A program made the position numbers and the translations under genes. Positions 1,828-59,402 of a stretch of DNA of 64,000 nucleotides are shown one piece after another. Under the pieces are notes generated by a model. It searched no databases. It saw nothing but the letters and a program-made list of their open reading frames with translations, and was not told the DNA's origin. Positions within the stretch are counted from its first letter, which is position 1, and every line of letters starts with the position of its first letter. The DNA lies in the NCBI GenBank assembly GCA_963843795.1, contig CAWJLW010000006.1:2678375-2742374 (forward strand), in the 5' to 3' direction. This stretch comes from an uncultured bacterium (lineage in GTDB: Bacteria > Armatimonadota > Abditibacteriia > Abditibacteriales > Abditibacteriaceae).

Positions 1828-3873
1828 ATGGCCACCACTTCCGGCAAAACGCTCAAACGCCCGCTCCGTTTTCGTCAAGTCCATCTCGATTTTCACACCA
1901 GCGAGAAAATTCCCGGCATCGGCTCTAAATTCAGCAAAGCCCAATTTCAGGAAATGTTGCAACGCGGTCACGTCGATTCGATTACCGTGTTTTCCAAATG
2001 TCATCACGGTTTGAGTTATCACGATACCGCAGTGGGTGTGCGCCATCCACATCTTGAATGCGATTTGTTGCCTCTGCAATTGGAAGCCTGCCGCGAAATC
2101 GACGTTGAAGCGCCGGTTTATCTCTCGGCGGGTTTGGATGAAGCGATGGCGACGCGTCATCCCGAATGGTGCATTCAAAGCAAGGACGGTAAATTGTTCG
2201 ACCCGCTGCGCGCCGGTTGGAAATTGTTGTCGTTTTCCAGCCCGTATCTCGATTATCTGTGCGCCCAAATCGAGGAAGTCGCCAAAAATTACCGGCCTAT
2301 TGGCATTTTTCTCGACATCATTCATCCGCACCGCGATTACTCTATCTGGGCTTTAGCCAAAATGCGCGAATTGGGTCTTGACCCTGCCAACGACGACGAT
2401 GCCGAAGCCTACGCTCAAATCGCGCTACAAAACTATTTCGAGCGCACGACGGCAGCTTGCAAAGTTGTCGATCCCGACATCCGCATTTTCCACAACAGTG
2501 GCCACATCGCCAAAGGCGCACACCAGTTTTTAAATTGGAACACGCATCTGGAATTGGAATCTCTTCCGACCGGCGGTTGGGGCTACGATCATTTTCCGGT
2601 TTCAGCTAAATACGCCGCTACAACCGGCTACGATTTTCTCGGCATGACCGGAAAATTTCACACCACATGGGGCGAATTCGGCGGTTTCAAACGGCCAAAT
2701 GCTCTGCGCTATGAATGCGCCGCGATGCTGGCTTTTGGCTCCAAATGTTCTATCGGCGACCAACTGCATCCCAGCGGCGAAATGAATGTGGACACTTATG
2801 AACTCATCGGCGCCGCTTATTCCGAAGTCGAAGCCAAGCAGGAATGGTGCGATGAAGTGACTGCGGTCAGCGAAATCGCCTTGTTCTCGCCCGAAGCCTT
2901 GCACACCGAAAAATTAGGCGAATATCGTAGCAAAGGCCAGTCGGAAGAAGGCGCTGCCAGAATGTTGCTCGAACTTGGCAGAGGCTTCGATGTGATTGAT
3001 TTAGAGCGCGATTTATCAAATTACAAACTGGTGATTCTGCCCGATGAAATTGTTTTCGATGGCAGCGCACCAACCGAGCGTTTGCGCGAATCGCTGGGCA
3101 AGTACTTGCAGGACGGCGGCAAAATTTTAGCTTCGGGTGATAGCGGTTTAAATGGCACGCGCAGCGAATTTGTCTTCGATTTCGGTCTGAACGTCAGCGG
3201 CAAAAGCGAATGGAATCCCGATTACATCATCGCCAACGCTTTGACGCCGACGCCATTTGTGCGCGGCCCATTCGTGATTCATAACGGTGCATGGAATGTG
3301 CAGCCCCAGGAAGGCACGCAAGTACTTGCCACGCGCGCCAAGCCTTATTTTAACCGCGCGTGGGATCATTTCTGCTCGCATCAGCACACGCCCGATGAAG
3401 CCGAAATTGAATTTCCCGCCGCGACTTTCAACGGCCAAACCGCTTATTTCGCGCACCCGATTTTCAAATGCTACCGCGAACTCGGCCAGCCATTGTATCG
3501 CGATTTGGTGCAAGATTCTTTGCAGTTGCTGATGGGTGCACCCCAAGTCGAAACCAATTTACCCAGCACGGGCCGCGTTTCGTTGCAGGAACAAATCGAC
3601 CAAAATCGCTACGTTTTGCATCTGCTGCACGCCGTTCCAGTCAAGCGCGGAGCCGATAGTTCGCAGTGGGCTTCGGGCGCAACCAGCGTCGAAATCATCG
3701 AAGATTTGCTGCCAATTCACGACGTCGAGGTAACTTTACACCTGCCGCGCACAATTCAATCCGCGCGCTTGGTGCCGGAAAATCGCGACCTGAATTTGGT
3801 GCGTGATAACGACAGCGTGAGCTTCAAGTTGGACAAATTGATTTGTCATGCGATGATTGAGTTGAGTTACTGA
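1828..3873 (+). CDS. GH151-like alpha-L-fucosidase / beta-galactosidase trimerization domain protein
   Basis: FRQVHLDFHTSE, FSKCHHG, ELESLPTGGWGY, GMTGKFHTTWGEFGG motifs; AAGGAG SD before ATG 1828. Confidence 0.82.
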   Translation: MATTSGKTLKRPLRFRQVHLDFHTSEKIPGIGSKFSKAQFQEMLQRGHVDSITVFSKCHHGLSYHDTAVGVRHPHLECDLLPLQLEACREIDVEAPVYLSAGLDEAMATRHPEWCIQSKDGKLFDPLRAGWKLLSFSSPYLDYLCAQIEEVAKNYRPIGIFLDIIHPHRDYSIWALAKMRELGLDPANDDDAEAYAQIALQNYFERTTAACKVVDPDIRIFHNSGHIAKGAHQFLNWNTHLELESLPTGGWGYDHFPVSAKYAATTGYDFLGMTGKFHTTWGEFGGFKRPNALRYECAAMLAFGSKCSIGDQLHPSGEMNVDTYELIGAAYSEVEAKQEWCDEVTAVSEIALFSPEALHTEKLGEYRSKGQSEEGAARMLLELGRGFDVIDLERDLSNYKLVILPDEIVFDGSAPTERLRESLGKYLQDGGKILASGDSGLNGTRSEFVFDFGLNVSGKSEWNPDYIIANALTPTPFVRGPFVIHNGAWNVQPQEGTQVLATRAKPYFNRAWDHFCSHQHTPDEAEIEFPAATFNGQTAYFAHPIFKCYRELGQPLYRDLVQDSLQLLMGAPQVETNLPSTGRVSLQEQIDQNRYVLHLLHAVPVKRGADSSQWASGATSVEIIEDLLPIHDVEVTLHLPRTIQSARLVPENRDLNLVRDNDSVSFKLDKLICHAMIELSY

Positions 3874-3941
3874 AGTGGACAAAACTGTGAAAATAGGCAA
3901 AACCTAAAAAGCGCAAAAATTGTTGGCTAACTGACAAGCAC

Positions 3942-3975
3942 AAAATCGCACTGCAAGTACTTGCAGTGCGATTTT
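3942..3975. terminator. Bidirectional terminator hairpin with GCAAGTACTTGC core
   Basis: 34-bp perfect palindrome with A/T tracts, between convergent genes. Confidence 0.8.
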
Positions 3976-3988
3976 TTACATTTTCACG

Positions 3989-4464: not shown

Positions 4465-5283
4465 TCAATTGTAGTCGCGCACGACGTTTTCAATCAGTTC
4501 GCGCGCGCTGGCAATATCGCGTTTTTGCGCTTCGCCACCGATTTCGCGTTCGATAATCAATGGCCCGCGAAAGCCGCCATCCAATAACGCGCGCAGCCAA
4601 GGTTCAAAATCGACTTCGCCTTTGCCCAGCGGTTCTTCGTGACCTAAATGGCCTTCTTTAGTCGGCCAGCAGCCATCTTTGCAATGCACGCTGACAATCC
4701 ACGGCGCAAGTACTTGCAGGGCGTCCAAAGGCTTGTCGTTGCCATACATCATCATATTCGCCGGATCAAAATTGACGCGCAGATTATCGCGCCCAACATC
4801 GTTGATAAAGCGCGCTAGGGTGTTCGCAGTTTCCTGACCGGTTTCCAGAGCAAAAATCTGATCGTGCTTTGCCAGTTCGTCGCAAATATCGCGCGTCTGC
4901 TGCACGATTTCATCGTATAACGGATCGCTGGCGTTTTCGGGAATGAAGCCGATGTGGGTTTGCACCTGCGCGACGCCAAGTTGCTGCGCGAAGTGGGCGA
5001 TGTGCAAAAAATGTTCGATGCGCGCCTCGCGCGTGGCGGGCGGAACGAGACCGACGGTGTGCTGCACAGTTTCGATATCAGCGTAACTTTCGCCCGCGAA
5101 ATGCGCAATGACGGCAGAAATTTCAATGGGATGATGCAGCAGCGCCGCCATCAAAGGCGCGGCTTCGAGAGACGCGGGCGGGAAAATCTGCGCAGTTTCG
5201 AGCTGTAAATCTTGCAATTGTTGTAAATCGTGTTCGGGTTCGTCGCCAATGCTCCACGTCGAACCAATAATTAATTTTTTCAT
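4465..5283 (-). CDS. Sugar phosphate isomerase/epimerase (AP endonuclease 2 TIM barrel)
   Basis: ALETGQE, VNFDPAN, VHCKD, IIERE; ATG 5283 overlaps the hisD stop. Confidence 0.85.
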   Translation of the reverse strand: MKKLIIGSTWSIGDEPEHDLQQLQDLQLETAQIFPPASLEAAPLMAALLHHPIEISAVIAHFAGESYADIETVQHTVGLVPPATREARIEHFLHIAHFAQQLGVAQVQTHIGFIPENASDPLYDEIVQQTRDICDELAKHDQIFALETGQETANTLARFINDVGRDNLRVNFDPANMMMYGNDKPLDALQVLAPWIVSVHCKDGCWPTKEGHLGHEEPLGKGEVDFEPWLRALLDGGFRGPLIIEREIGGEAQKRDIASARELIENVVRDYN

Positions 5284-6590
5284 AGTGATTCCTTGTTGTT
5301 CGCCGCCATTTTCACCGCAGCGGCGTGTCCGGGCAAATCTTCCAAGAGCGCGATAATTTCCAAGTCGTCGGCCATTTTCGCAATCGCGCTGGGCGGCGCG
5401 GCCAATAGACTGCTGCGTTTCAAAAACGTCGCAACATCGACGCCACCGGAAAAACGTGCCGTACCGCCCGTCGGCAAGGTGTGTGATGGGCCAGCCATGT
5501 AATCGCCCAACGGCACCGGCGTGTTGAGAAAAATCGCGCCCGCGTGACGAATGTGGGCGCTCAAACCCAGCGCATCGCAGCTCCAAATTTCTAAATGCTC
5601 GGCTGCCGCTAAATTCGCTAGTTCGCACATTTGATTGGTATCGGTCACGCACAGCACCAAACCGTTGGGGAGAGATTGTTCTAAAATTTCGCGGCGCGGG
5701 CTGGCAAGTACTTGCGTTTGTAACTGTGCAAGTACTTGCTGCGAGATTTCATTGCTGTGACAAATCAAACACGCCCACGAATCGGCACCGTGTTCAGCTT
5801 GAGCCAATAAATCGGCGGCGATTTGCGCGCTGAGGTTGTCATCAATTTTGCGATAGTCGCAGACAATTACAACATCGCTTGGTCCGTATAAGCCATCGAC
5901 GCCGACCGCGCCGAAAACGTGTTTCTTGGCCAGCGTGCCGTAGATATTGGCCGGGCCAGCAATAGTATCGACGCGCGCAATCGTTTGGGTGCCATAAGCC
6001 ATTGCCGCAATCGCAACCGCGCCGCCCACTTTATAAATTTCTTCGATGCCGGCAATTTTCGCAGCCGCCAAAATGACCGGATGCAAGCTGCCATCGCGCG
6101 AAGGCGGCGAAGCGAGTACAATTTCGCGCACGCCAGCGACTTTAGCGGGCATCGCGACCGCCAAAACGCTTGATGGCAGCGCGGCGCGCGCGTTGGGCGC
6201 ATATAAACCGGCGCGGTCAACTGGCGTGAAACGCTGGCCCAAAAATGCGCCGTCAGGCGAAATTGTGTGCCAATCGCTGCGTGGCTGATGGCTGTGAAAA
6301 GCGGCGATATTGTCTGCCGCGCGCTGCAAAGCTTTTTTTTGCGCCGAATCCAACGTACGCCACGCGGCCTCGATTTCTGAGGGCGCAACGCGTAATTGTT
6401 CGCGCGTCAAATTTGGGCAGTCGAACTGGCGCTCGAAGCGCAAAACCGCCTCATCGCCTTCGCGGCGCACCGCATCGCAAACTTCGCGTACGATGGTTTC
6501 GATTTTGGGCTGGTCTTCAAAGGCGCGCGCGACGTTGGCTTTTTCCAAAGCGGCGCGGCACGATTCTAAACCGGAAAATACGGGCAACAT
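5280..6590 (-). CDS. hisD: Histidinol dehydrogenase
   Basis: DLLAQAEH, AEHLEI, GDYMAGPSHTLPTGG motifs. Confidence 0.95.
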   Translation of the reverse strand: MLPVFSGLESCRAALEKANVARAFEDQPKIETIVREVCDAVRREGDEAVLRFERQFDCPNLTREQLRVAPSEIEAAWRTLDSAQKKALQRAADNIAAFHSHQPRSDWHTISPDGAFLGQRFTPVDRAGLYAPNARAALPSSVLAVAMPAKVAGVREIVLASPPSRDGSLHPVILAAAKIAGIEEIYKVGGAVAIAAMAYGTQTIARVDTIAGPANIYGTLAKKHVFGAVGVDGLYGPSDVVIVCDYRKIDDNLSAQIAADLLAQAEHGADSWACLICHSNEISQQVLAQLQTQVLASPRREILEQSLPNGLVLCVTDTNQMCELANLAAAEHLEIWSCDALGLSAHIRHAGAIFLNTPVPLGDYMAGPSHTLPTGGTARFSGGVDVATFLKRSSLLAAPPSAIAKMADDLEIIALLEDLPGHAAAVKMAANNKESL

Positions 6591-7480: not shown

Positions 7481-7514
7481 AAAATCCCGCTGCAAGTACT
7501 TGCAGCGGGATTTT
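7481..7514. terminator. Bidirectional terminator hairpin with palindrome core
   Basis: 34-bp perfect palindrome plus T7 tract, between convergent genes. Confidence 0.82.
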
Positions 7515-10613: not shown

Positions 10614-10669
10614 TTACTTGTTAAAAACTCAATTGCAGCAACTGCAAGTACTTGCAAAGGACATTTTCG

Positions 10670-12310: not shown

Positions 12311-12346
12311 GAAAAATGCCCTGCAAGTACTTGCAGGGCATTTTTC
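12311..12346. terminator. Bidirectional terminator hairpin with palindrome core
   Basis: 36-bp perfect palindrome between convergent genes. Confidence 0.8.
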
Positions 12347-14345
12347 ATCTCTCAACCGGCTCAATCGTCGTCGTGAAAGTGGCTTTCTCGCCCTGCGTTT
12401 CTAACAAAATCGCCGCGCGACGCTGCGGCGGTGCATCCGGCACATCGGCGCGCATCGCATGAAAAATCTTGTCACAGTTAATGGTCACACGAAACATTTG
12501 GATTTTACCCGCATCGTTTTTGATATTGACCACGAAACTGATTTCGCGCCGGTCGGATAATGCGCCCTGCAACGTCCAATACGCAAAAGCAGGCGGACGC
12601 CCCAAAGCAAAATCGGTCTCTAGATTATCGTTTTTCCAATCGCCGCCATTCCTTTGAATTTCGCCTTGAAGTTGCAGCGATAAACCCAGCGAATGTTCTT
12701 TTCCATCGGTCGTTTCAATTGTCGCCACATCGCGCAATTGTTCACCTTCAATACTCAGCGTGCGCGAGGCTTTGGCGTTCGGACGATATTTGGGCTGCGA
12801 GGCGCTGACAGTTAAATTTCCCGCATCGAACTTCAACAGTTCACCTTCATTCCACAATTCCTGTCCTTCGCCATCGACCAAAAGCGCGTTGTGCGACAGT
12901 GCGCGCCGGTAGTAGTTGGTATGCAGCGGCGAGCCGTATCCGACAGTTCCAGCATCATGCGTGACATCGAAATCGTTCCAAAACGCCTCGAAATTGAGGG
13001 CTTCACTTTGTGCATGCGAACTCGTCAATTGCCCGTAATGAAACCACAATTGCCAGCTTTTCCCGCGCAGCAACGCCATACGACTCGATTTCAAACTGCG
13101 TGAAGCAACCGGCGCGATTTCCGATCCTGCAAGTACTTGCACCGCTAATTTCGGCGGCGGATCAATTAGCGTGTCCCACGAACGCGTTTTGGCGGCTTCC
13201 TGCAAGCCGATTGTTGTTGGAAAAATGCGATATTGACTCGCCAAAAAACCTCGATTAGGTGCTTTGCTGCGCGTTGAATCGGCGGGTGTTGGCAACTGCC
13301 CATTGACAAAGCGAATCGCTAAGGGAGCCAGCATCAAGTTCTGCGCGATGTGCATTTCGCCTTTCAGTTCATCCCCGCGCCCATCCAACATGGCATTAGT
13401 GAACAAATCTTGCAACGCCGACAAAAGATACGAATTGTAACCCAGCGATTGTTCGTACCAGAGATAATCGCCCGTGACGCCTTGCGCGAGTTGCGCGCGA
13501 ATGCCGAATTTGCCATCAATGGCGATTTTCCACAGCGCGTCATCTTTGGCGTATAAAGCCGCTTGCGCCGTCGCCGAGCGCTGCCATGTCGCAATGTTGT
13601 GAATGGTTTGTGTGGATTTGTTCAACAGTTCGGCTTGGGGACGAAACAATCGTTCTATCCAGTACGCTTTCTTTTCGGGTGAAACGTAAGTCCCTAGAGC
13701 GCGCACCGCATTGAGATGATGAGTGAGCAAAACTGCATCATCAAGGGCTTGCGCGGTCAGGCGCGATAAACCTTTATCGGGTTGTAACGGCCATTTTTCG
13801 TAATTATCGGCATAGAAATCGAGCTGCCCACTCACCCAATCGCCGTATTTTTTGTCATCGGTCAAGCGATACAATTTGGCCGCGCGCTCTATCATATCAC
13901 CGTTTTTGGCGCGAAAACTATAAACCCATGCGCCAAATAATTTCGGCGTGAGAGCGACGTGCTCGTTGGGGTCACTACTGGAAACCAGAGAGTTTTCCGT
14001 GGGGATTTCCGGCGTCCATACCAGTCGCGCGCCATTTTTGGGTGACACGAAATCGTGATACCAGCCCGCCACCCATTCCACACGGTCGGCGCGCTTGCTA
14101 ATCCAGTCATCGACTTCCGCGCGCTCTTTGCCCAGCCACTTTTTCCACTCCGCATCGTTTTGAACGCGCAATTTCGCGCTCGCCCAATCTTCGCGCGGCA
14201 TCCGCAAAACTTCGCCATCGTGCCAAATTTTGTATTCCGCGAACGCCTTTTCCGGCGCGGGCTTGGGAAAACGCTCCGGCTCTTGCGCGTGCGCAAGGGT
14301 TGAAGTTGTCATGGCAAACAATGAAATGGCGAAGCTGATTTTCAT
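12345..14345 (-). CDS. Secreted heparinase II/III-family polysaccharide lyase (oligoalginate lyase-like)
   Basis: Signal peptide; IHNIATW, WYEQSLGYNSY, SHAQ, SHNALLVDG. Confidence 0.75.
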   Translation of the reverse strand: MKISFAISLFAMTTSTLAHAQEPERFPKPAPEKAFAEYKIWHDGEVLRMPREDWASAKLRVQNDAEWKKWLGKERAEVDDWISKRADRVEWVAGWYHDFVSPKNGARLVWTPEIPTENSLVSSSDPNEHVALTPKLFGAWVYSFRAKNGDMIERAAKLYRLTDDKKYGDWVSGQLDFYADNYEKWPLQPDKGLSRLTAQALDDAVLLTHHLNAVRALGTYVSPEKKAYWIERLFRPQAELLNKSTQTIHNIATWQRSATAQAALYAKDDALWKIAIDGKFGIRAQLAQGVTGDYLWYEQSLGYNSYLLSALQDLFTNAMLDGRGDELKGEMHIAQNLMLAPLAIRFVNGQLPTPADSTRSKAPNRGFLASQYRIFPTTIGLQEAAKTRSWDTLIDPPPKLAVQVLAGSEIAPVASRSLKSSRMALLRGKSWQLWFHYGQLTSSHAQSEALNFEAFWNDFDVTHDAGTVGYGSPLHTNYYRRALSHNALLVDGEGQELWNEGELLKFDAGNLTVSASQPKYRPNAKASRTLSIEGEQLRDVATIETTDGKEHSLGLSLQLQGEIQRNGGDWKNDNLETDFALGRPPAFAYWTLQGALSDRREISFVVNIKNDAGKIQMFRVTINCDKIFHAMRADVPDAPPQRRAAILLETQGEKATFTTTIEPVER

Positions 14346-14405
14346 GGCGCGTTTTGAGCGTTTTGTGGGAAGGATGTTGCAAGTACTTGCAGCGTGGTTT
14401 TTGAT

Positions 14406-14855: not shown

Positions 14856-14891
14856 AAAAACCGCTCTGCAAGTACTTGCAGAGCGGTTTTT
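14856..14891. terminator. Terminator-like hairpin with palindrome core
   Basis: 36-bp perfect palindrome with A/T tracts just past the 14903 stop. Confidence 0.75.
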
Positions 14892-17472: not shown

Positions 17473-20400
17473 TCAATACGGCACTTGCAAACACTCTGCT
17501 TTCAACACACTCAGTAATTCCCCTGCGAATTCTTCGCTGGGTTCGACCCAATAATCGGGCGCGACGCGCAGTTGCATCATTTCCAACCCGTTGTCGATGT
17601 GGAGCCACACTTCGGTGTTGCCGTGATGGCGCTTGCAGATGTTCCACAATTTGCCCAACGTTTCCGCCGTCGCGCAATCTTCGCCGATGTGCAGATGCAC
17701 GCAGCCCGCAGCCCATTCCGGAGGCGAGAAAAAGCGCCCGATGCTTTCCACTGCATCGCCCCATTCGCCATTACTCGCCGTCGTGCTGGCCGCAAATTCC
17801 GGCGCGTAACTCGGCGCTTCGGGCACATAGCCGCCATTGGTGCCGTTGCCGTTTGCGCCGTTGGAATACGCGCCGTTGCCATTTGCTGGAGGAGAGTCGA
17901 TATTCGAACGATGGAGCGAAATGCCGTTGCCATTTTGTGGCGTAGCTGGTGTCGCAAGTACTTGCGGAGGCGCTGTATCAAGCGGCGGCGTTTCGGATGA
18001 CTCGGCAAGTACTTGCGGGGTCATAACTTCATCATAATCGGCGACTTCTTCCACGGGAATGAGTTCGATTTCGTCGGCCATGATTTTATACACCGTATCG
18101 CTTTCGGCGTCCTCGTCGTCGTTTGGCTTGAAGCCACCACGCCGCGTATCGGCGCTGATACGACCGCGCACAATTAAACGTGCGTCTTCTGTCACGCATT
18201 CGCCGCATTTTTCGTAGGTTTTGGCGAAGGCCAGAACTTCAATCGAACCGGCCAAATCTTCCAATCCGAAAATCGCCCACGGACGGCTGTTTTTGTCGAA
18301 GCGTTTCATCACGCTCGTTACCAGACCGCCGACTTCGACGCGCGCGCCATCGCGCAAACCTTCCTCGCCGATTTTATCCAGGCCACTGCAACGTCGCTCC
18401 AAAAAGCCGCGCAATGGCAGCAGCGGATGATCGGAAATATACAAGCCCAACAATTCTTTTTCCCACGTCAAACGCTCATCGCGCGAGGCATCGGGTACAT
18501 CTTCCAACGTGCCGGTAGATTTAATTTGTCCGGTTTCGGCGGGTGCGCCGAACAAATCGCCCTGACCTTTGCTGGCCGAAACCGCATCCAACAAAGCGCG
18601 ATCTACGGAATCCAAAGCGGCCTGACGATTGGGATGAATCGAATCGAAAGCGCCACATTTAATCAGCGTTTCGATAGCGCCTTTGCCACAGGCGCGCGGC
18701 GCAACGCGGGTGCAGAAATCGAAAATGCTGATGAAGCGCCCACCTTCTTTGCGCGCCTCGCAAATCGCCGCCACCGGCCCTTCGCCGATGCCTTTAATCG
18801 CCTGCAACCCGAAGCGAATGCTTTCCTCATGGCGCGCGCCGACAACCGTAAAGTCGCGGTTCGATTCGTTGACATCCGGTGCAAGTAACTTGCAGGCCAT
18901 TTTTGCGGCAATCGTCAATGACGACCAGCAATTTGTCTTTCTTTTCCAGCAAAGACGTCATCTTGCAAGCCATAAATTCCGGCTTGTAATTCGTCTTCAG
19001 CCATGCCGTCCAATACGAAACCAAACCATAATACGCGGCGTGACTTTTGTTAAACGCGTAGCGTGCGAAGGCCTCCATGCGCTCGAAAATTTCGGTCGCG
19101 TCGGCGTTGCTGATTTTGTTGGCTTTGCAGCCTTCCAGAAACAGCGGTTTCATCGCCGCCATTTCGTCGGCTTTTTTCTTCGACATCGCTTTCATCAGCG
19201 ATTCGGCCTGACCGCCGGTGAAGTTGGCCAGCACCGTCGAGGCTTGCATCACTTGCTCTTGATAGAGCAGCATGCCGTAAGTGTCTTTCAAGACGGCTTC
19301 GAGTTTGGGATGCGGATAAGTCACTTTGCCGCCGAAACGGCCTTGAATGTAGCGCGGAATTTCGTCCATCGGGCCGGGACGATACAAAGAAATCTGCGCG
19401 ATGATATGTTCCAGATTTTCCGGTTTCAGTTCGCGCAGTAATTTGCGCATTCCGGTGCCTTCCATCTGGAAAACCGCGATACCGTCACCTTTGCCCAACA
19501 TATCGTACACGCGCTTGTCGTTGAGTTCGATGGATTCAAGGTCGATTTTTTCGTTGTGGCGACTTTCGATGAGTTCCAGCGTATCGTTGATGACGGTATT
19601 GTTTTGCAAACCCAGAAAGTCCATCTTCACCAAGCCGACTTTTTCGACCGCTTTGGCGTGATACTGCGTGATGATGTCGCCGTCTTTTTCTTCCAACGGC
19701 ACCAGTTCGTCCAGCGCTTCCTTGCCAATGACCACGCCGCAAGCGTGGCGACTCGCGTGGCGCGTGAAACCTTCGATTTGCTGCGCCGTATCGAGCAGGT
19801 TTTTGACCTGCGAATCGGAAGAATATAAATCGCCGAGTTCTTTGACTTCTTCAATCGCTTTGGCAATCGAAATCGCGTGGCCCGGAATCGCGGGAATCAT
19901 CTTCGACACGTTATCGGCCAGCTTCAAATCCAAGCCCATCGCGCGCGCCGAATCGCGCACTGCCGCGCGCGCGGCCAGAGTTCCGAACGTGATAATCTGC
20001 GCGACTTTTTCCTTGCCGTACTTATCGCTGACGTATTTCAAAACTTCGTCGCGTCGTTTGTCGGGAAAGTCCACGTCAATATCGGGCGTGCTTTTGCGTT
20101 CAGGATTCAGAAAACGCTCGAACAGCAAACCATACGGCAACGGATCGAGGTTGGTGATGCCCAACACATACGACACCAAACAGCCCGCCGCCGAGCCGCG
20201 ACAGCCGACTAAAATGCCGCGACTTTTACTCCAGTTGATGAAATCCTGCACCACCAGAAAATAGCCGGGATAACCTTTGTCAATGATAATTTGCTGCTCA
20301 TACGCCATGCGCTTGCGCGCTTCGGCTTCGCGCGGATGGCCTTTGGGATAGCGCGATGGGAAACGTTCTTCGCACAGATGCTTGAAATACGAAGTCAAGT

Positions 20401-21485: not shown

Positions 21486-22277
21486 ATGCATAACTTTCAG
21501 TCAAAAGGCCGCGTTTTAATCACTGGCGCCTCCGGTGGCATCGGTCTCGAACTGGCGCGCTGTTTCGCGCGCGGGCGCTACGATTTGGTTTTGGTCGCGC
21601 GCCGCGAAGACGAATTGAATAAAGTGCGCGATGAATTGCAAACGCGCCACAAAATTACAGCGCAAGTACTTGCAGCAGACTTGAGCGAACCAGACGCGCC
21701 AAAAAACATCCTGCAAGTACTTGCAGAGACGCCAATTGATATTCTGGTGAATAATGCTGGTTTCGGTGATTTCGGGCCGTTCGCCCAGTGCGACGAAGAA
21801 AAAATGCTGAATGAATTGGCAGTTAATATCACAAGTTTGACGCACTTGACGCGCTTGTTTTTGCCGCCGATGCTGAAACGCAAGCACGGACGAATTCTCA
21901 ATGTGGCATCGACCGCCGCATTTTTGCCCGGCCCGTTGATGTCGGTTTATTACGCCAGCAAAGCCTACGTTTTGAGCTTTTCCGAAGCAATTACCAATGA
22001 ACTTGAAGGCAGCGGCGTAACAGTGACGTGCTTGTGTCCCGGCCCGTCGCCGACCGGTTTTCAAGAGCGCGCCGAGATGAAATCGTCTAAATTAGTGGAT
22101 GCAACGATGATGGATGCGGCAACAGTGGCGCGCGCCGGTTATCGTGCGTGTTTGCGCGGACAAGCGGTAGTGATTCCGGGCCACATGAATGCAATAGCTA
22201 CCTTTGCCACGCGCTTCATGTCGCGCGAATTAAAAGCGAAGTTGGTGCGGCGCGCGCAAGATTCTAAGACGAAATAA
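21486..22277 (+). CDS. Short-chain dehydrogenase (SDR)
   Basis: ITGASGGIG, NNAG, YYASK. Confidence 0.92.
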   Translation: MHNFQSKGRVLITGASGGIGLELARCFARGRYDLVLVARREDELNKVRDELQTRHKITAQVLAADLSEPDAPKNILQVLAETPIDILVNNAGFGDFGPFAQCDEEKMLNELAVNITSLTHLTRLFLPPMLKRKHGRILNVASTAAFLPGPLMSVYYASKAYVLSFSEAITNELEGSGVTVTCLCPGPSPTGFQERAEMKSSKLVDATMMDAATVARAGYRACLRGQAVVIPGHMNAIATFATRFMSRELKAKLVRRAQDSKTK

Positions 22278-22284
22278 GTCGCAG

Positions 22285-22314
22285 AAACGGCCTGCAAGTA
22301 CTTGCAGGCCGTTT
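22285..22314. terminator. Bidirectional terminator hairpin with palindrome core
   Basis: 30-bp perfect palindrome between convergent genes. Confidence 0.78.
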
Positions 22315-23348: not shown

Positions 23349-23374
23349 GGCGCTTATTTTATAATGTGTTGCCC

Positions 23375-23902
23375 ATGACTTCATCAAAGTTTTCCGTTCC
23401 AACTCTTGGCCAACCGTTACCGGCTTTTGAACTGCCGGTCGCACTACCGCAAGTACTTGCACCCGAAAATACTTTTGTAAAAGCCGCTGCGAGTGCTTGC
23501 AGTTCGGAAAGTTTGCGGGGACGCGCGCACGTTTTATTCGTGTATCCGCGCGACGCCACTGCGGGCTGCACGCTCGAAGCCAACGGTTTTCGCGATTTAT
23601 ACCAAGCATTTGAGAAGCTGGGCGTGGGAATTTTGGGCTTGTCGCGCGATACCGTTGGCACTCACCGAAAATTTATCGCAGCACAAAATTTACCGTTCGG
23701 GCTTTTGTCTGATAAAGAACAGCATTTATTGAAAGCGTGGGATTTAATCGTGCCCGGCACGATGTATGGCAAGCCGGTCACCAAAGTTCTTCGCACCACG
23801 TTTTTAATTGATGAAAATTTGGTCGTGCGCCAAATCTGGCGCGATGTAGTGCCCGAAGGTCACGCCACTCAGGTGCTTCGATACAGTGAACAGAATTTGT
23901 AA
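23375..23902 (+). CDS. bcp: Peroxiredoxin Bcp/PrxQ
   Basis: YPRDATAGCTLEANGFRD, LPFGLLSD, RTTFLID. Confidence 0.85.
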   Translation: MTSSKFSVPTLGQPLPAFELPVALPQVLAPENTFVKAAASACSSESLRGRAHVLFVYPRDATAGCTLEANGFRDLYQAFEKLGVGILGLSRDTVGTHRKFIAAQNLPFGLLSDKEQHLLKAWDLIVPGTMYGKPVTKVLRTTFLIDENLVVRQIWRDVVPEGHATQVLRYSEQNL

Positions 23903-25835: not shown

Positions 25836-25888
25836 AACCAAAGCGCCCTGCAAGTTACTTGCGCAAGTACTTGCAGGGCGCTTTGGTT
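25836..25888. repeat. Tandem double-core hairpin (first core has an extra T)
   Basis: AACCAAAGCGCCCT-GCAAGTTACTTGC-GCAAGTACTTGC-AGGGCGCTTTGGTT. Confidence 0.85.
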
Positions 25889-27524: not shown

Positions 27525-27584
27525 AAACGTAAAAAGCGCGCTGCAAGTACTTGCGCAAGTACTTGCAGCGCGCTTTTTACGTTT
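27525..27584. repeat. 60-bp perfect palindrome with tandem double core
   Basis: AAACGTAAAAAGCGCGCT-(GCAAGTACTTGC)x2-AGCGCGCTTTTTACGTTT; probable terminator of 27599..28372. Confidence 0.9.
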
Positions 27585-29330: not shown

Positions 29331-29389
29331 TTTTGGTGAGAAAAATGTGCTGCAAGTATGCTGCAAGTACTTGCAGGGCGCTTTTGTTG

Positions 29390-33649: not shown

Positions 33650-33692
33650 AAAGCGCGCTGCAAGTACTGCGCAAGTACTTGCAGCGCGCTTT
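33650..33692. repeat. Tandem double-core hairpin (first core lacks one T)
   Basis: AAAGCGCGCT-GCAAGTACTGC-GCAAGTACTTGC-AGCGCGCTTT. Confidence 0.85.
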
Positions 33693-34884: not shown

Positions 34885-34928
34885 AAAGCGCGCTGCAAGT
34901 ACTTGCGCAAGTACTTGCAGCGCGCTTT
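34885..34928. repeat. 44-bp perfect palindrome with tandem double core; bidirectional terminator
   Basis: AAAGCGCGCT-(GCAAGTACTTGC)x2-AGCGCGCTTT between convergent genes. Confidence 0.9.
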
Positions 34929-35632: not shown

Positions 35633-35702
35633 CTCCTGCAAGTACTTGCAGGCAGTTTACCGCAAGTACTTGCAGCGCATTTGCTCCGTTAAACTGCGCC
35701 CC

Positions 35703-36728: not shown

Positions 36729-37609
36729 TGACTGTTTTTGATGCTTACAACCGTTCGGTGCAGCGTTTAATCGAAGCATTAAATTTACCGCGCGACGAGG
36801 CTTGCGTGCGCGCGCGTTTGTTGCTGGACCAAATCGTGCAAACGCGGCACGCACATTTGTTAGTGCCGCTGCAAGAACTTGCCGAAGACCAACTCTCGCG
36901 CTGGCAAACCCTGTTGGGCGAAGCTCTCAGCGGGCGTCCACTGCCGTATATTTTGGGCGAATGGGAATTTTGGGGATTAGGTTTTCGGGTCGATGAGCGC
37001 GTGCTCATTCCGCGACCCGAAACCGAAATTCTGGTCGAAGCGACTTTGCAGCGTTTAAAAAATATCGACGCGCCGCGTATCGGCGATTTGGGAACCGGCA
37101 GCGGTTGCATCGCGATTTCACTGGCTCACGAACGCAGCGATGCAACGGTTATTGCCACCGATTTATCAAGTGACAGCTTGCAATTGGCGCAGCAGAATGC
37201 GGCGCGTCTGGGTGTGAAAAATCGGATCGAATGGCGAATCGGTGAAATCGGAAATTGGGGAGCGCCGTTGCAGGCTGCGGCAAGTACTTGCCGCGCTCTT
37301 TTCGATGCGATTGTGTCGAATCCGCCTTATATTCCAGCGCGCGAAATCGAGAATTTGCAAATCGAAGTGCGCGCTTACGAACCGCGTCGCGCTCTGGATG
37401 GCGGTGCAGACGGTGTGCGCGATTATCGTTTGATGGCAACACAATTGAAACCTTTTTTGAAACCAGATGGCTTTCTTGCGCTGGAATTTGGGCACGGACA
37501 GTTTGCAACGTTGCGGGAAATTTTTGAAAATGAAGGCTGGCAAGTCGGCGCGCCATTGTGCGATAATGCCGGTCTGGAACGCGCGCTGATTGCGACGAAA
37601 AAAGAATAA
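36728..37609 (+). CDS. prmC: Release factor glutamine methyltransferase
   Basis: PLPYILG, VLIPRPETE, DLGTGSGCIA, SNPPY, ALDGG. Confidence 0.93.
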   Translation: MTVFDAYNRSVQRLIEALNLPRDEACVRARLLLDQIVQTRHAHLLVPLQELAEDQLSRWQTLLGEALSGRPLPYILGEWEFWGLGFRVDERVLIPRPETEILVEATLQRLKNIDAPRIGDLGTGSGCIAISLAHERSDATVIATDLSSDSLQLAQQNAARLGVKNRIEWRIGEIGNWGAPLQAAASTCRALFDAIVSNPPYIPAREIENLQIEVRAYEPRRALDGGADGVRDYRLMATQLKPFLKPDGFLALEFGHGQFATLREIFENEGWQVGAPLCDNAGLERALIATKKE

Positions 37610-38822: not shown

Positions 38823-38923
38823 AGACTTCTGGACGCATCATCAAGCGAAAAGTGCCCCTGCAAGTACTTGCAGCGCGCTTTTGTGGCGCGTGTAATCTGT
38901 CACAATAAAAATAAAGGAAAATT

Positions 38924-40078: not shown

Positions 40079-40313
40079 AATTGAAAAATTTGTGTCTCGA
40101 ATAAAGGTGCAAGTACTTGCATTGCGGTGCAAATCGGTGTAATCCATAAAGAGGTCAAAAAATTTACGCTGCAAGTTACTTGCAGTCATCTATCGGAATA
40201 CGCAACGTTTTTTTCGTTGTGCAAGCCATCGCAATCGGCGTCGTATCGAGCCGAACTTGCGATGGCTTTTCTGTTTTGCGTTCGCTTTAGTTTGTCACTG
40301 AACCTCAACGATT

Positions 40314-42799: not shown

Positions 42800-42833
42800 A
42801 AAACGTCCCTGCAAGTACTTGCAGGGACGTTTT
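42800..42833. terminator. Terminator hairpin with palindrome core
   Basis: 34-bp perfect palindrome ending in a T tract after the operon. Confidence 0.78.
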
Positions 42834-44561: not shown

Positions 44562-44604
44562 TTTTTGCGCGGCAAGTACTTGCTGCGCGATGCTCATCGC
44601 CGCT

Positions 44605-45411
44605 ATGAAATTTATTCGTCCCCTGCTGTTTTTTGCCGTTCTCGTTTCCAGCACAACCTACGCCGCAGAAGACCCGACTCCAAACGCGGCAGCGCCCATA
44701 AACCGCGACGCGCCTTTGGCCACGCAAGCGCCGCCTGCCCAAGACGCGCAACTTGTGACAGAAGACATTTCCAGCGCTCCGACAACCTCTGATTCCGCGC
44801 CGCAAGTACTTGCCGATGATAAATCGCAGCCTTCAAAAGCCACGCCGCGTTCACCACGCGGCGAAACGGTGCGCGCGATGGCGCGGCGCTTGAAGTTGCC
44901 CTTGCCGCTTCCCAAAGCGCGCATCGAAATCTATAAATCGCTGCGCCGTCTGGATGTTTATAGCGGGCAGGTTTTGCTGAAAACTTATAGCGTTGCGTTA
45001 GGTTCGCAGCCGGTCGGTGCCAAACAGCATCAAGGCGATGGACGCACTCCCGAAGGCAGCTTTCGCATTTGCCGCCGCGATAACCTGACCTCGAACTTTC
45101 ATATTTTTCTGGGCTTGAGTTATCCTGAAGTGCCCGACGCCGAGCGCGGTTTGCGCAACAATCAGATCACGCCGCGCGAACACCAAGTCATTCGCAATCG
45201 GCTGGCGGCGCGCTCCGCACCACCGTGGCGTACTAATTTAGGCGGTTGGATTGGAATTCACGGCGGCACCGATGCGGCGTTTGCACAGAAATTGAAGCAG
45301 CAACGCAACTCGCCCGATTGGACAGCGGGCTGCATCGCATTGACCGACCGCGAAATCGAGGAGATTTACGCAGCAACCACAATGGGCACGCCTGTCAACG
45401 TTCATTCTTGA
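44605..45411 (+). CDS. L,D-transpeptidase (YkuD family)
   Basis: GDGRTPEG, LSYP, IGIHGG, WTAGCI; signal peptide. Confidence 0.88.
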   Translation: MKFIRPLLFFAVLVSSTTYAAEDPTPNAAAPINRDAPLATQAPPAQDAQLVTEDISSAPTTSDSAPQVLADDKSQPSKATPRSPRGETVRAMARRLKLPLPLPKARIEIYKSLRRLDVYSGQVLLKTYSVALGSQPVGAKQHQGDGRTPEGSFRICRRDNLTSNFHIFLGLSYPEVPDAERGLRNNQITPREHQVIRNRLAARSAPPWRTNLGGWIGIHGGTDAAFAQKLKQQRNSPDWTAGCIALTDREIEEIYAATTMGTPVNVHS

Positions 45412-48114: not shown

Positions 48115-48189
48115 GCCGTAAACTTCAACGAATTTTCAATCTTTCAAGGCTGCTGCAAGTACTTGCAGGGCGTTTTGCCCTATCTCGTT

Positions 48190-49979: not shown

Positions 49980-50007
49980 AGCGTGTTGCAAGTACTTGCA
50001 ACACGCT
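49980..50007. terminator. Terminator hairpin with palindrome core
   Basis: 28-bp perfect palindrome followed by a T tract, between convergent genes. Confidence 0.75.
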
Positions 50008-51415: not shown

Positions 51416-51452
51416 AATGCAAAATATGGCGCTGCAAGTACTTGCAACTTAT

Positions 51453-53201: not shown

Positions 53202-53233
53202 ACGCCCGCTGCAAGTACTTGCAGCGGGCGTTT
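53200..53233. terminator. Bidirectional terminator hairpin with palindrome core
   Basis: 34-bp perfect palindrome between convergent genes. Confidence 0.8.
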
Positions 53234-54733: not shown

Positions 54734-54895
54734 AATTTCCTCCGGTATTAGTTGCAAATTAGCAACAAATTAGCAAAATGACAAAGTTAACGCCCGCAAG
54801 TACTTGCGGGCGGTTTTGAGAACTACAAAGTTTAGAACTTCGTGGCGCTTAAAAGTTACAGCAACTTTTTGCATCTTTTGAGCTTACGCTTGAGC

Positions 54896-56912: not shown

Positions 56913-56956
56913 GCTACGAATTGGCCTTGCAAGTACTTGCAAGGCCAATTCGTAGC
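56913..56956. repeat. 44-bp perfect palindrome with the 12-bp core, between divergent genes
   Basis: GCTACGAATTGGCCTT-GCAAGTACTTGC-AAGGCCAATTCGTAGC. Confidence 0.88.
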
Positions 56957-57105: not shown

Positions 57106-58161
57106 ATGAGCAAAATTTTACTGATTACGGGCGGCACCGGCTTTTTGGGCTGCCATATCGCGGCACGTTTTCTTCGCGATGACTGGCAAGTTCGCTTGTT
57201 TGATCTGGCTCCTTTGGACGAACCCGAACTGCTGGAAGCCCAAATCGAGGGCCGCGTGCAAACGATTCACGGCGATGTCGCCGACCGCGCTGCTGTGATG
57301 AAGGCCAGCGAAGGCGTGACAGCGACGATTCACACCGCGGCGGCGTTGCCTATTCAAGGTGACCGCGACAAGATTATGGACACCAACGTTGGCGGCACTC
57401 AAAACGCGCTCGAAGGCGCGCGCGAACATGGCGTCGAGAAAGTGGTGCATATTTCATCGACCGCAGTTTACGGCGTGCCCAAAATTCATCCTTTATACGA
57501 AACCTCGCCGATTGTGCCCTTGGGCTTATATGGAATTTCCAAAGTCGAAGCCGAAGCGCGCTGCGACCGCGCTCGCGAAAATGGTGTTGATGTGACAATT
57601 GTTCGCCCCAAAACTTTTATTGGAACCGGTCGATTGGGCATTTTTCAAATTTTGTTCGAATGGATTCGCGAAGGCCGCCGCATTCCAATTATCGGAACGG
57701 GTAACAATCAGTATCAACTGATGGCAGTTAGCGATCTGGTCGATTTGCTGTATCGCAGCGTAACAATGCCCAATCGCAACGAAACTTTCAACGCGGGCGC
57801 GCGCGAATTTGGTACCGTCCGTGAAGATTTGAATGCCGTGTTGCGCCACGCCGGAACCGGCGCGCGCTTATCGCCGCAACCGCCGTGGTTGGTGCAGCCC
57901 ATTTTGCGGGCGCTGGAAATTGCCAAATTATCGCCACTGGTCGAATGGCATTATAAAACGGCGAATATGGATTCGTTTGTCGATTGCTCGCACGCCGAAG
58001 AAGTTTTGGGCTGGCGCACCGAAAAATCGAACGCGCAGACTTTGATCGAAACTTACGATTGGTATCTCAACCATTACGAAGATTATCTCGATAAAGTTGG
58101 CCTCACGCATCGTGTTGCGTGGGATCAAGGCGCTTTGAACTGGTTTCGTAAAATTAGCTAA
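57106..58161 (+). CDS. NAD-dependent epimerase/dehydratase
   Basis: ITGGTGFLG, ISSTAVYG, YGISK. Confidence 0.9.
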   Translation: MSKILLITGGTGFLGCHIAARFLRDDWQVRLFDLAPLDEPELLEAQIEGRVQTIHGDVADRAAVMKASEGVTATIHTAAALPIQGDRDKIMDTNVGGTQNALEGAREHGVEKVVHISSTAVYGVPKIHPLYETSPIVPLGLYGISKVEAEARCDRARENGVDVTIVRPKTFIGTGRLGIFQILFEWIREGRRIPIIGTGNNQYQLMAVSDLVDLLYRSVTMPNRNETFNAGAREFGTVREDLNAVLRHAGTGARLSPQPPWLVQPILRALEIAKLSPLVEWHYKTANMDSFVDCSHAEEVLGWRTEKSNAQTLIETYDWYLNHYEDYLDKVGLTHRVAWDQGALNWFRKIS

Positions 58162-58220
58162 AAAGGCGCTGCAAGTACTTGCGCCCGTAATTGCAGCGCA
58201 CAATTTCCCTTTCGTTTTTC

Positions 58221-59402
58221 ATGCTGCTCGATTTTGAAGGTCAACGCATCAGTGGGCGCGAACCGTTCGCCACGCTCGAAGCGCGCGGCAATGTGGCGCA
58301 TTGGAAGAATGTGTCTGCCACGCCAAGTGCAAGTTGGCAAAACGAAACCGATTTTTTCGCGGCATGGCGCGCGCTCAATGCGTGGGGCAAAATCCATTTT
58401 CCATCTGGCGGCGCTCTGGGGTTTTTAAGTTACGATTGGGCGCGCGTCCTCGAACCACGCGCTTTTTCCCAACCGTGCGCGAAAAATGAAACGCAGTTGC
58501 CGGATGTGCGCGTGACGTTTTTTCGTCATCTTGATGAAGCACCCTCGCCGCCCGCAGGAGAAAATTTAGGGCGCGTCTCGACGCTGGGAAGTGAAGCCGA
58601 AGCTGATGGCAAGTACTTGCAGGACGTGCGATGTGTTCAAGATTTCATTGCGCGCGGCGATATTTATCAGGCCAACTTAACGCGCCGTTTCGAGCAGGAA
58701 TTGAACTGTGCGCCGCGCTCATTATATGAACGTTTGCGCGCAAACCACGCAGTGAATTTCGGCGCGTTTCTGGAATGGGACGACTGGCAAATCGTTTCCA
58801 ATTCTCCCGAACGTTTCGTGCGTTTGCGTAATCGCGAACTTTTGGCGCAGCCGATCAAAGGCACTATCGCGCGCGGACGAAATGCGCAGGATGATGCCAA
58901 ATTACGCGCGCAATTGCAATTTTCGCCCAAAGACCGCGCGGAAAATGTGATGATCGTTGATTTGCTGCGTAACGATCTGGGTCGGGTTTGCGAATGGGGC
59001 AGCGTGCGTGTGCCGCGTTTGTGGGCGATTGAAACCTTCGGCACACTGCATCATTTGGTTTCGGATGTAAGCGGCATTTTGCGCGAAAATTTGGACGGTT
59101 TGGATGTCTTACGTGCCTTATTTCCATGCGGCTCGATTACCGGTGCGCCGAAAATTCGCGCGATGCAAATTTTAGACGAGTTAGAGCCAGTGAAACGCGG
59201 CGTCGCGATGGGTGCACTGGGCTATTGGAAATTTGGTGGCGATATGGATTGGAACGTCGCCATTCGCACTGTGACATGCCGCGAAGGTCGCGCCGAATTT
59301 CATTGCGGCGGCGGCATCGTGGCCGATAGTCGCGCCGAGGATGAGTGGCGAGAATTGCAATTGAAAGCGCGCGCGCTGCGCACTGCCCTGGCAATGCTGT
59401 GA
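58221..59402 (+). CDS. pabB: Aminodeoxychorismate synthase / anthranilate synthase component I family
   Basis: GDIYQANL, SPERF, PIKGT, AENVMIVDLLRND, FPCGSITGAPK. Confidence 0.85.
   Translation: MLLDFEGQRISGREPFATLEARGNVAHWKNVSATPSASWQNETDFFAAWRALNAWGKIHFPSGGALGFLSYDWARVLEPRAFSQPCAKNETQLPDVRVTFFRHLDEAPSPPAGENLGRVSTLGSEAEADGKYLQDVRCVQDFIARGDIYQANLTRRFEQELNCAPRSLYERLRANHAVNFGAFLEWDDWQIVSNSPERFVRLRNRELLAQPIKGTIARGRNAQDDAKLRAQLQFSPKDRAENVMIVDLLRNDLGRVCEWGSVRVPRLWAIETFGTLHHLVSDVSGILRENLDGLDVLRALFPCGSITGAPKIRAMQILDELEPVKRGVAMGALGYWKFGGDMDWNVAIRTVTCREGRAEFHCGGGIVADSRAEDEWRELQLKARALRTALAML

Follow-up and report, generated by a model that had tools for sequence, protein, structure and literature searches.

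The window, as the whole 64-kb stretch of Abditibacteriaceae DNA analysed is called here, contains 50 exact copies of GCAAGTACTTGC, a 12-bp perfect palindrome (Table 1). Fourteen of them are coding by the called genes: 11 are read as QVLA, two as KYL and one as ASTC. A preliminary description of this DNA placed 15 copies in coding sequences, 12 of them in the QVLA frame. All 15 coordinates and the KYL and ASTC counts are exact, but the copy at 23449 lies upstream of its gene. It reads QVLA only in an 87-codon upstream extension of ORF 22332-23609; since the Gfo/Idh/MocA domain begins at residue 111 and translation is called from the ATG at 23348, this copy is most likely intergenic. The reported copy pairs are all real, at a spacing of 24 bp in hisD and of 51 bp in both dnaE and an SDR gene.

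Table 1. Exact copies of the palindrome in the window
Positions	Strand	Context	Details
391..402		intergenic, divergent genes	
1769..1780		intergenic, divergent genes	
3098..3109	+	coding, KYL frame	GHL6-domain gene 1828-3873
3318..3329	+	coding, QVLA	GHL6-domain gene 1828-3873
3953..3964		intergenic, convergent genes	extended palindrome with A/T tracts
4706..4717	-	coding, QVLA	xylose-isomerase-like gene 4465-5283
5704..5715	-	coding, QVLA	hisD residue 293; collinear with 5/5 orthologs
5728..5739	-	coding, QVLA	hisD residue 285; collinear with 5/5 orthologs
7492..7503		convergent	centre of terminator-like hairpin, -24.1 kcal/mol, z -7.2, GUAC loop
8565..8576		intergenic, divergent genes	
10644..10655		intergenic, tandem genes	
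12323..12334		convergent	terminator-like hairpin, -26.2 kcal/mol, z -8.3
13129..13140	-	coding, QVLA	heparinase II/III-like gene
14379..14390		intergenic, tandem genes	
14868..14879		tandem genes	terminator-like hairpin, -24.9 kcal/mol
17954..17965	-	coding, QVLA	DnaE variable linker, after OB fold
18005..18016	-	coding, QVLA	same DnaE linker, 51 bp from 17954 copy
21662..21673	+	coding, QVLA	SDR gene
21713..21724	+	coding, QVLA	SDR gene, 51 bp from 21662 copy
22294..22305		intergenic, convergent genes	
23449..23460		between divergent genes	100 bp upstream of called start at 23348
25863..25874		intergenic, tandem genes	abuts degenerate copy
27543..27566		convergent genes	two abutting copies
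29363..29374		intergenic, convergent genes	
29749..29760		intergenic, convergent genes	
31998..32009	-	coding, QVLA	S9 peptidase gene
32384..32395		intergenic, divergent genes	
33671..33682		intergenic, tandem genes	
34895..34918		convergent genes	two abutting copies
35638..35673		divergent genes	two copies 24 bp apart
37280..37291	+	coding, ASTC	prmC
38860..38871		intergenic, divergent genes	
40109..40120		intergenic, tandem genes	
42811..42822		intergenic, tandem genes	
44572..44583		intergenic, tandem genes	
44802..44813	+	coding, QVLA	YkuD L,D-transpeptidase gene
48155..48166		intergenic, tandem genes	
49988..49999		intergenic, convergent genes	
51434..51445		intergenic, tandem genes	
53211..53222		convergent	terminator-like hairpin, -28.2 kcal/mol
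54796..54807		intergenic, tandem genes	
56929..56940		intergenic, divergent genes	
58171..58182		intergenic, tandem genes	
58609..58620	+	coding, KYL	pabB
59411..59422		intergenic, tandem genes	
61154..61165		intergenic, tandem genes	
61994..62005		intergenic, tandem genes	

Abundance and spacing in the genome

The genome under study (G000; other G-numbers denote related genomes) carries 2,567 exact copies against 0.2 expected, about one per 1.7 kb (0.6 per kb), of which 799 are coding and 1,762 intergenic (69% intergenic). For the coding copies the expectation is 0.16-0.17 (order-2 and order-4 Markov models), and shuffled control palindromes of the same composition occur 0.2 times on average and twice at most. 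One-mismatch variants number 506 and are spread across all 12 positions, with 140 in the central four. Exact copies are absent from two 26-kb IS-rich stretches and one 32-kb island. No description of this palindrome system was found in the literature searched.

The copies are spaced more evenly than random (CV 0.74-0.87 in G000; 0.56-0.69 in samples of five relatives), and at the kilobase scale coding copies occupy the gaps between intergenic ones in four genomes. When genes are grouped by zero, one or two motif-bearing flanks, the coding copies per kb are 0.45/0.22/0.12 in G000, 0.94/0.79/0.26 in G009, 1.11/0.75/0.52 in G012 and 0.28/0.14/0 in G006; six control words show a drop of about one quarter at most. 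Intragenic position is barely tied to which flank bears the copy (131 near, 152 far), and short-range depletion of coding-coding pairs is absent in G000 (<100 bp: 22 seen, 17 expected). Coding density is 0.23 and 0.22 per kb in genes with and without a match in the relatives, a weak test since the relatives are only partly sampled.

Close pairs (16-130 bp apart) display 10.5-bp phasing (Rayleigh 20.2, n=143; the largest value in 300 jittered sets is 9.2), which rises to 27.3 when one mismatch is allowed, and the intervening DNA is unrelated. This phasing could be explained by a dimeric protein that is abundant on the chromosome (an organiser of the nucleoid, or a loader), whose sites would provide coverage each 1-2 kb with neighbours on the same helix face. 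The sharpness of the palindrome (2,567 perfect against 506 one-off copies) and the gap-filling also favour such a protein, as does the E. coli SlmA site GTGAGTACTCAC (PMC3020112), likewise a 12-bp palindrome with AGTACT at its centre, which matches the G009/G012 core over its inner 8 bp. However, SlmA is a TetR protein with sites that avoid the terminus (PMC3020112), whereas a TetR_N (PF00440) match is absent from G000 (92% complete) and G006, the sites here number thousands, and there is no hole at the GC-skew maximum (each full 200-kb bin beyond the first holds 112-144 copies). HU is represented by one ordinary match in 5/5 genomes, motif-bearing and motif-free alike; G017 is motif-free (0 in 160 kb) though nested among carriers; and the phasing is testable in G000 only, because G009 and G012 have few close pairs. 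A chromosome protein as the cause is considered quite unlikely.

REP elements associated with RAYT transposases are intergenic palindromes that form stem-loops near gene ends, and many copies of GCAAGTACTTGC resemble them. An origin as a mobile element of the REP kind, or simply as a preferred loop in terminators, the copies in genes being strays, could account for the intergenic majority, for the occupation of 274/435 convergent regions, for the extension of 63% of convergent copies by at least 7 bp, for the folding of 4/4 intergenic examples as strong hairpins and for a weak Y1 transposase match in G000. Against it, 223/433 divergent regions are occupied too, the 799 coding copies (0.17 expected) are collinear with orthologs, and a third of all copies are in-frame substitutions in genes. 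There is no fixed longer unit (219 different 7-base arms occur among the 511 long hairpins), no four copies cluster within 400 bp, a Y1 transposase match is absent in G006, and transposition would leave gaps unfilled. As a cause this explanation is very improbable and largely refuted; it remains as a secondary use. Extension to a long hairpin is found in 2% of coding copies against 63% of convergent ones, and the motif is therefore more than a terminator loop, as previously proposed.

Coding copies and their peptides

QVLA is the commonest tetrapeptide of the G000 proteome. Among 2,824 confident genes, 494/554 QVLA peptides are coded CAA GTA CTT, against about 0.3% from codon usage; in the called genes of the window this holds for 11/11. 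GTA and CTT are indeed minority codons (7% of Val and 8% of Leu, motif masked). The preliminary statement that all QVLA copies use these codons is true by definition for the motif, and the peptide count provides the independent test. In every dialect-bearing relative the proteome is likewise enriched in the peptide that its dialect encodes; the dialects spell RVLE in G009 and QSTL in G001.

The frame bias stressed in the preliminary description is present (486/154/127, or 63/20/17%) but ordinary. It ranks as amino-acid availability (73/17/10%) and not as codon usage (23/73/5%), although it still departs from the former (chi2 52). Enrichment over amino-acid frequencies is higher for ASTC (40x) and KYLQ (24x) than for QVLA (16x), and in G009 the bias is nearly gone (74/69/49). 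Frame bias was already described for the uptake sequences USS and DUS in PMC2817400, and it is the least new part of the finding.

In ortholog alignments QVLA replaces residues that the relatives have, mostly by substitution at poorly conserved sites; gaps occur in 27/223 alignments, not above matched controls (16-19%). At hisD residue 293, for example, the aligned residues are QVAR, QVLG, QIAS, QIEG and QTST. A different dialect stands at the aligned site in 13/128 alignments (2.25 expected), as in the DnaE copy at 18005, where G001 bears its own QSTL. Same-core metagenome relatives have 17/36 aligned sites in common, against 1.4% in matched controls. All the tests (frames, dialect peptides and orthologs) agree with the proposal that a force acts on the DNA and that protein selection filters its outcome. 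The term "uptake sequence" applies to the motif by way of comparison.

Dialects, candidate readers and the origin of the sites

The motif is carried by 7/31 genomes of the class, confined to two genera. Their species dialects centre on AGTAC, with about 0.7-1.2 core copies per kb in the seven genomes, and all retain GTAC. The G006 unit has GTAC in its arms; about 52/353 half-sites are alone and directional, and the rest form inverted pairs. G017 likely represents a loss of the motif. Genera g2 and g5 show strong avoidance of RAGTACTY (0-45 against 60-418 for controls), and some force therefore acts on it family-wide. A second directional word, CAGCCACGGCG, unrelated to the first, is observed in another sub-clade of the family.

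The explanation preferred here, at somewhat under even odds, is that GCAAGTACTTGC serves as a HIP1/DUS-like species self tag for DNA uptake or recombination. A sequence-specific reader protein would recognise the tag, and tagged fragments would be preferentially recombined in. A mutation creating a site on a site-free fragment would gain a transmission advantage, which would disappear once another site lies within 1-2 kb. Protein selection would purge sites at constrained residues and so set the frame split, shifts in the flank preference of the reader would produce dialects and re-spell old sites, and terminator use would be a co-option.

Dialects, even spacing, gap-filling, empty islands, permissive sites, dialect swaps at aligned sites, the lone half-sites of G006 and the presence of competence genes (comEC, comEA, dprA, comM, together with a type IV pilus cluster) count for the tag. 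Its density (0.6 per kb for the 12-mer, about 0.7-1.2 for the core) is comparable with the 0.80 and 0.89 per kb given for USS and DUS in PMC2817400. DUS dialects around a common core are known in Neisseriaceae (PMC3630211), and HIP1, likewise palindromic, is described as increasing transformation (10.1101/2024.09.10.611283). On the other side, the known USS and DUS lack palindromy (PMC2817400), neighbouring coding copies show no short-range depletion, intragenic position hardly follows the motif-bearing flank, coding density (a weak test) is alike in genes with and without a match, uptake does not predict the 10.5-bp phasing, and competence genes are equally present in motif-free relatives: comEC occurs in 27/27 family genomes and comM is matched in 23/27, the gene being split in G006 and G009, which bear the motif. 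No reader protein was found: the pilus cluster, its pilin set included, is the same in three motif-bearing and two motif-free relatives, and no receptor-pilin candidate stands out.

Gap-filling does not separate the uptake tag from the methyl-directed repair ratchet that Elhai proposed for HIP1, since that model also predicts saturation at one site per kb (PMC4390886, section 3.4). Here biased mismatch repair would fix new sites, one per repair tract; an orphan adenine methyltransferase would mark GTAC, and a putative strand-choosing nickase would read core and flanks. The palindromic sites, the retention of GTAC, the RAGTACTY avoidance and the MutL-, MutS- and MutS2-like genes found by motif search agree with the ratchet. 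So does an orphan N6/N4 methyltransferase in 7/7 motif genomes (one match in G000, without a conserved neighbour gene; its nearest structures are those of beta-class enzymes, M.RsrI among them); neither a Dam-type nor a C5 enzyme was matched in G000. However, the same methyltransferase occurs in 14 motif-free genomes, G017 included, and GTAC avoidance does not track its presence. One-off variants affect all 12 positions, whereas HIP1 varies mostly at its ends, and the G006 unit, with GTAC in its arms and lone directional halves, also speaks against it. The ratchet is regarded as rather unlikely, if conceivable.

Comparison with known systems and significance

HIP1 (GCGATCGC) and the alternate HIPs of cyanobacteria, as described in PMC4390886, PMC5861425, PMC13756078 and 10.1101/2024.09.10.611283, are likewise hyper-abundant palindromes near one per kb that occupy intergenic DNA as well as every reading frame; particular lineages have alternatives of their own, sites are conserved between genomes and an orphan methyltransferase is present; in these sources their function is debated between repair, chromosome architecture and transformation. 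GCAAGTACTTGC, whose host has its nearest relatives among Abditibacteriaceae, differs in phylum, in sequence (neither GCGATCGC nor a GC-rich alternate) and in length (at least 12 bp), in its intergenic majority incorporated into terminator-like hairpins, in the dialects of close species around one core, in variants that are not end-concentrated, and in having no methyltransferase tied to it.

DUS of Neisseriaceae and USS of Pasteurellaceae, according to the accounts in PMC2817400, PMC3630211 and PMC2397512, are similar in density, even spacing, scarcity in genes, frame bias, peptide enrichment, permissive sites, absence from acquired DNA, terminator use and shared-core dialects; the directional lone halves and inverted pairs of G006 also recall DUS. 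In these accounts, however, DUS and USS are non-palindromic, their tripeptides are enriched about 2-fold, far less than QVLA here (about 20-fold), and preferential uptake is experimentally shown; no ComP-like receptor was identified in the present clade.

Comparably abundant motifs have been described from the two uptake-sequence families and as HIP1 in cyanobacteria, the role of which is still unsettled after three decades. The clade adds an independent example: it has several dialects, has likely lost the motif in G017 and includes motif-free sister genera; the reader is therefore searchable by gene-content comparison, and uptake, repair and architecture models can be weighed against one another. 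In this organism a DNA signal has made one tetrapeptide the commonest in a proteome. It is possible, and is put forward tentatively, that Abditibacteriaceae join two other bacterial families in having a sequence-specific uptake signal, and that theirs is the first palindromic signal of this kind: the AGTAC core would be recognised by a reader present in two genera, whose shifted flank preference would have re-spelled orthologous protein sites (QVLA, RVLE, QSTL) and raised species barriers. If so, the unrelated word CAGCCACGGCG would mean that uptake signals arose twice in one family.

Copies of the palindrome and their reading frames

The 12-letter palindrome of G000, the genome that holds the window, is GCAAGTACTTGC. 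The window contains 50 exact copies, and all 15 coordinates of the preliminary description were exact. Genes were called with a purpose-written caller (dicodon model, motif masked; 3,337 genes, 85% coding), on which every coding and intergenic class count depends. Of the 15 copies previously placed in coding sequences 14 stand (11 reading QVLA, 2 KYL and 1 ASTC). The copy at 23449 is not counted as coding, since it lies in an upstream ORF extension, ahead of the called start and the Pfam domain. The other 36 window copies are situated between genes.

Throughout G000 (4.30 Mb, 92% complete) the motif occurs 2,567 times, about 0.2 copies being expected; 799 copies are coding, 1,762 intergenic and 6 located at contig ends. 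Of the 435 convergent regions 274 contain it, as do 223 of the 433 divergent and 1,084 of the 2,458 tandem ones. One-off variants number just 506 and are distributed across all positions, while 2,567 of the 3,241 AGTACT sites belong to the complete 12-mer. The gene dnaE in the window, as well as pilC, gnd and one large pilin gene outside it, is fragmented, likely by assembly indels.

Coding copies are read as QVLA (506), KYL (160) or ASTC (133). QVLA outnumbers every other tetrapeptide in 2,824 confident G000 genes (554 occurrences; its permutations average 41), and 494 of the 554 are spelled CAA GTA CTT, where GTA is a 7% and CTT an 8% codon, as the codon choice reported from the window had indicated. 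Enrichment relative to amino-acid frequencies is 40-fold for ASTC, 24-fold for KYLQ and 16-fold for QVLA. The frame split (63/20/17%) is ordered like amino-acid availability (73/17/10%), unlike codon usage (23/73/5%), and still deviates from availability (chi2 52); the 11/2/1 split of the window does not differ from that of the genome (P 0.47). The availability order and the enrichment of all frames bear out the earlier proposal that protein selection only filters the frame. Selection for a peptide is ruled out as the source of the bias, since all frames are enriched and the peptide varies with the dialect, i.e., the species-specific version of the motif. Such frame bias is ordinary: PMC2817400 already reports it, together with peptide enrichment, for USS/DUS, and PMC5861425 describes HIP1 as enriched in every frame.

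Enrichment of QVLA over outgroups, an expectation of the same proposal, was found in G000 and its same-core relatives, and the others carry the peptide of their own dialect. Per 100,000 residues (samples of relatives comprise 23,000–109,000 residues), QVLA occurs 48 times in G000, 30 times in metagenome relatives whose core is CAAGTACTTG and 1.7–5.8 times in six other sets. The corresponding rates are 45 for RVLE and 49 for SSTR in G009, 52 for QSTL in G001 and 15.5 for STVE in G006.

Dialects, substitution and phylogeny

The exact 12-mer of G000 has 0–3 copies in 40 of 40 relatives, and its inner 10-mer 0–9 copies in 26 of 26 family genomes. Dialect words were obtained by de novo counts on fetched stretches of relatives (see table). 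Whole-genome counts of RAGTACTY reach 2,695–4,371 in six genomes (controls 54–255) and 0–396 in the remaining 25 of the 31 genomes of the class. In a survey of 401 phylum genomes with a completeness of 70% or more, which covered RAGTACTY alone, only G000, G009, G012, G015 and G019 exceed 481. G006 has 1,293 + 1,340 copies of its own word, which occurs 0–28 times in the other 26 of 27 genomes. There, 116 word pairs per 400 kb have a spacing of precisely 15 bp, and solitary half-sites make up about 52 of 353; a purely directional word is ruled out because most halves are paired. Metagenome relatives (loci L150–L228, JAABUM/JAABUK/JAABUR contigs, 64–79% nucleotide identity) carry the looser CAAGTACTTG dialect, about one core per kb.

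Dialect words and coordinates of features
Feature	Genome or locus	Coordinates	Remark
Dialect CAAAGTACTTTG	G001, same genus as G000		common core
Dialect WTCGAGTACTCGAW	G009, G015, G019, L004		common core
Dialect CGAGTACTCG	G012		common core
Dialect RAGTACGGTCGAWW	G006		common core
dnaE	window	17473-21334	split over two frames, break near 18810-18830
DUF1559 prepilin-type gene	window	8784-9452	
DUF1559 prepilin-type gene	window	9843-10613	
DUF1559 prepilin-type gene	window	45590-46393	
32-kb island	G000, contig C3	1-32,000	tail-sheath, tube and baseplate-like genes, by visual inspection of the sequences
comM	G006		split
comM	G009, contig C1	2145624-2176085	split by ~29 kb of other DNA

The same word is hyper-abundant in two genera and avoided in sister genera: RAGTACTY is strongly avoided in genera g2 and g5 and in G025 (0–45 copies, controls 60–418), and GTAC is nearly zero in the G005 and G008 samples. 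One g2 sub-clade has a second, unrelated abundant word, CAGCCACGGCG, in G007 (locus L065; 526 + 525 copies), G018 (L132; 413 + 426) and G016 (L070; 125 + 106), with 0 copies in G002 and 3–14 for controls. This directional word could be either uptake-like or Chi-like. G016 has an additional longer repeat, which starts with GTAG and has AGCCACG in common with CAGCCACGGCG. A repeat containing TGTACGTACA (27 copies, L066 on G021:C21) is probably a CRISPR array.

Substitution was distinguished from insertion by ortholog alignment (best BLASTP matches with an identity of 40% or more, a single one for each gene and group, and five residues aligned to either side of the site, giving 223 alignments over 171 distinct G000 sites). 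Identity is 21–38% at motif residues, 37–49% in the flanks and ~60% elsewhere; for same-core relatives it is 61% at motif residues versus 64% elsewhere. Gaps at the motif (27 of 223 alignments, 12%; 4% for all positions) are below those of equally variable positions (16–19%), which indicates substitution. The two hisD sites align collinearly with five orthologs. The titles of the five top hisD matches name Abditibacteriaceae, Abditibacterium or Armatimonadota. Insertion of copies into genes is ruled out for most sites by the alignments and the hisD collinearity. The core is kept at 17 of 36 aligned sites in same-core relatives (matched controls 1.4%). Of 128 alignments with relatives of other dialects, 13 show the relative's own word (11 distinct sites, 2.25 expected; P 2e-5 for 11), as in ALATLQVLAD versus ALATLRVLES, and G001 has its own at 3 of 6. 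This could reflect the re-spelling of old sites or a repeated use of identical permissive spots, and the matched control accounts for the latter only in part.

The dnaE-only tree was poorly resolved, and rpoB/rpoC were used instead (FastTree, 28 genomes). The carriers (7 of 31 class genomes) fall within the g1+g3+g6 grouping with support of 0.97 (0.59 with dnaE added). The motif may have had one origin or two. Loss of the motif is suggested for G017, because this motif-free genome (GAGTACTC absent from the 160 kb examined) groups as sister of the carrier G012 (support 0.96); G003 is likewise without the motif. In G017 comM has two stops, and 12 of 68 sampled genes, including rpoB and atpD, are broken, which points to assembly errors. 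Competence loss is not readable there, since topA, the neighbour of dprA, is missing together with it and so many sampled genes are broken.

Spacing, phasing and hairpins

Motif spacing is under-dispersed. When intergenic copies are kept in place and coding ones distributed at random, 273 of the latter are expected within 500 bp of an intergenic copy and 135 beyond 1.5 kb, against 166 and 244 observed. Coding density decreases as more flanks carry the motif, whatever the gene length class; for genes with both spacers of at least 60 bp it is 0.31, 0.17 and 0.10 with 0, 1 and 2 such flanks. The effect is repeated in three relatives, and control words hardly change. A simple one-per-fragment rule is opposed by the coding pairs of G000, which show no short-range depletion, and by the position of coding copies in genes (near/far 131/152). 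Exact copies are absent from two 26-kb gaps, in which genes resembling those of transposases and type I restriction systems were recognised by eye, and from the 32-kb island of contig C3, which from its genes resembles an extracellular contractile injection system. Motif density has no hole at the G000 skew maximum. We infer a sequence-specific process working on kilobase stretches. Elhai's repair ratchet likewise predicts that palindromes accumulate up to a saturation density of one per kb (PMC4390886), and this explanation is considered somewhat unlikely.

Pairs spaced by 16–130 bp show 10.5-bp phasing and enclose unrelated DNA; this was assessed in G000, close pairs being rare in relatives, and two of the three window pairs (51 bp) agree with it. 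Binding of the motif by a chromosome protein would fit both the sharp palindrome and the phasing, and is nevertheless judged distinctly unlikely.

The palindrome is extended by a median of 11 bp in convergent copies and 0 in coding copies. Four intergenic examples are predicted to fold, with z between -6.9 and -8.3, and carry U tracts. This is not so for three single coding copies, and the pair in hisD folds back on itself. The arms are diverse (219 types among 511), so the hairpins evolved separately around the motif. REP/RAYT was rejected, and a REP or terminator function alone is highly improbable as the explanation.

Candidate readers and mechanism

The search for a reader, a hypothetical protein recognising the motif, was targeted at competence genes, methyltransferases, TetR, GIY-YIG and Y1 transposase. 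The comEC, comEA, dprA and comM genes and a pilus cluster are present in carriers and equally in non-carriers. The other DNA that splits comM in G009 suggests an integrated element. Pilin-like proteins of G000 number 39 by pattern, and a motif copy is found in only 3. One N6/N4 methyltransferase, nearest to M.RsrI, occurs in 21 of 31 class genomes, including 7 of 7 carriers; this orphan enzyme is not supported as a specific partner, as it is also found in non-carriers. G000 gave no Dam-type, C5 or TetR match, and a SlmA-type site was rejected. A stand-alone GIY-YIG (Ssn-like) nuclease was rejected as well, since the two G000 matches belong to reading frames that are 672 and 450 residues long; Y1 transposase gave a weak match only.

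Among viral contigs, the G009 14-mer has one site per locus in 80 of the 80 loci listed. Several low-GC phage contigs contain multiple G000 12-mers; having no protein match to G000, they are uninformative on phages of these hosts. IMG/VR contigs L295, L297, L302, L315 and L359 (38–46% GC; terminase and DnaB genes, no protein match to G000) have repeated TGCAAGTACTTGCAC-type sites, many in short intergenic gaps; these sites are probably a phage operator or promoter element unrelated to the motif.

The 12-mer was not found in the literature searched, although supplements of genome-wide palindrome surveys may list such words; nothing relevant on palindromes, repeats or competence was found there for the phylum or genus. 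A bias of DNA uptake or recombination may be the best explanation and is tentatively favoured, because it fits the density, dialects, islands, putative terminator use and lone halves in G006. The features of uptake sequences used in this comparison come from PMC2397512 and PMC3630211, and HIP1, also a palindrome, increases transformation according to 10.1101/2024.09.10.611283 and PMC13756078. The motif works like HIP1 and DUS, yet misses one defining feature of each.
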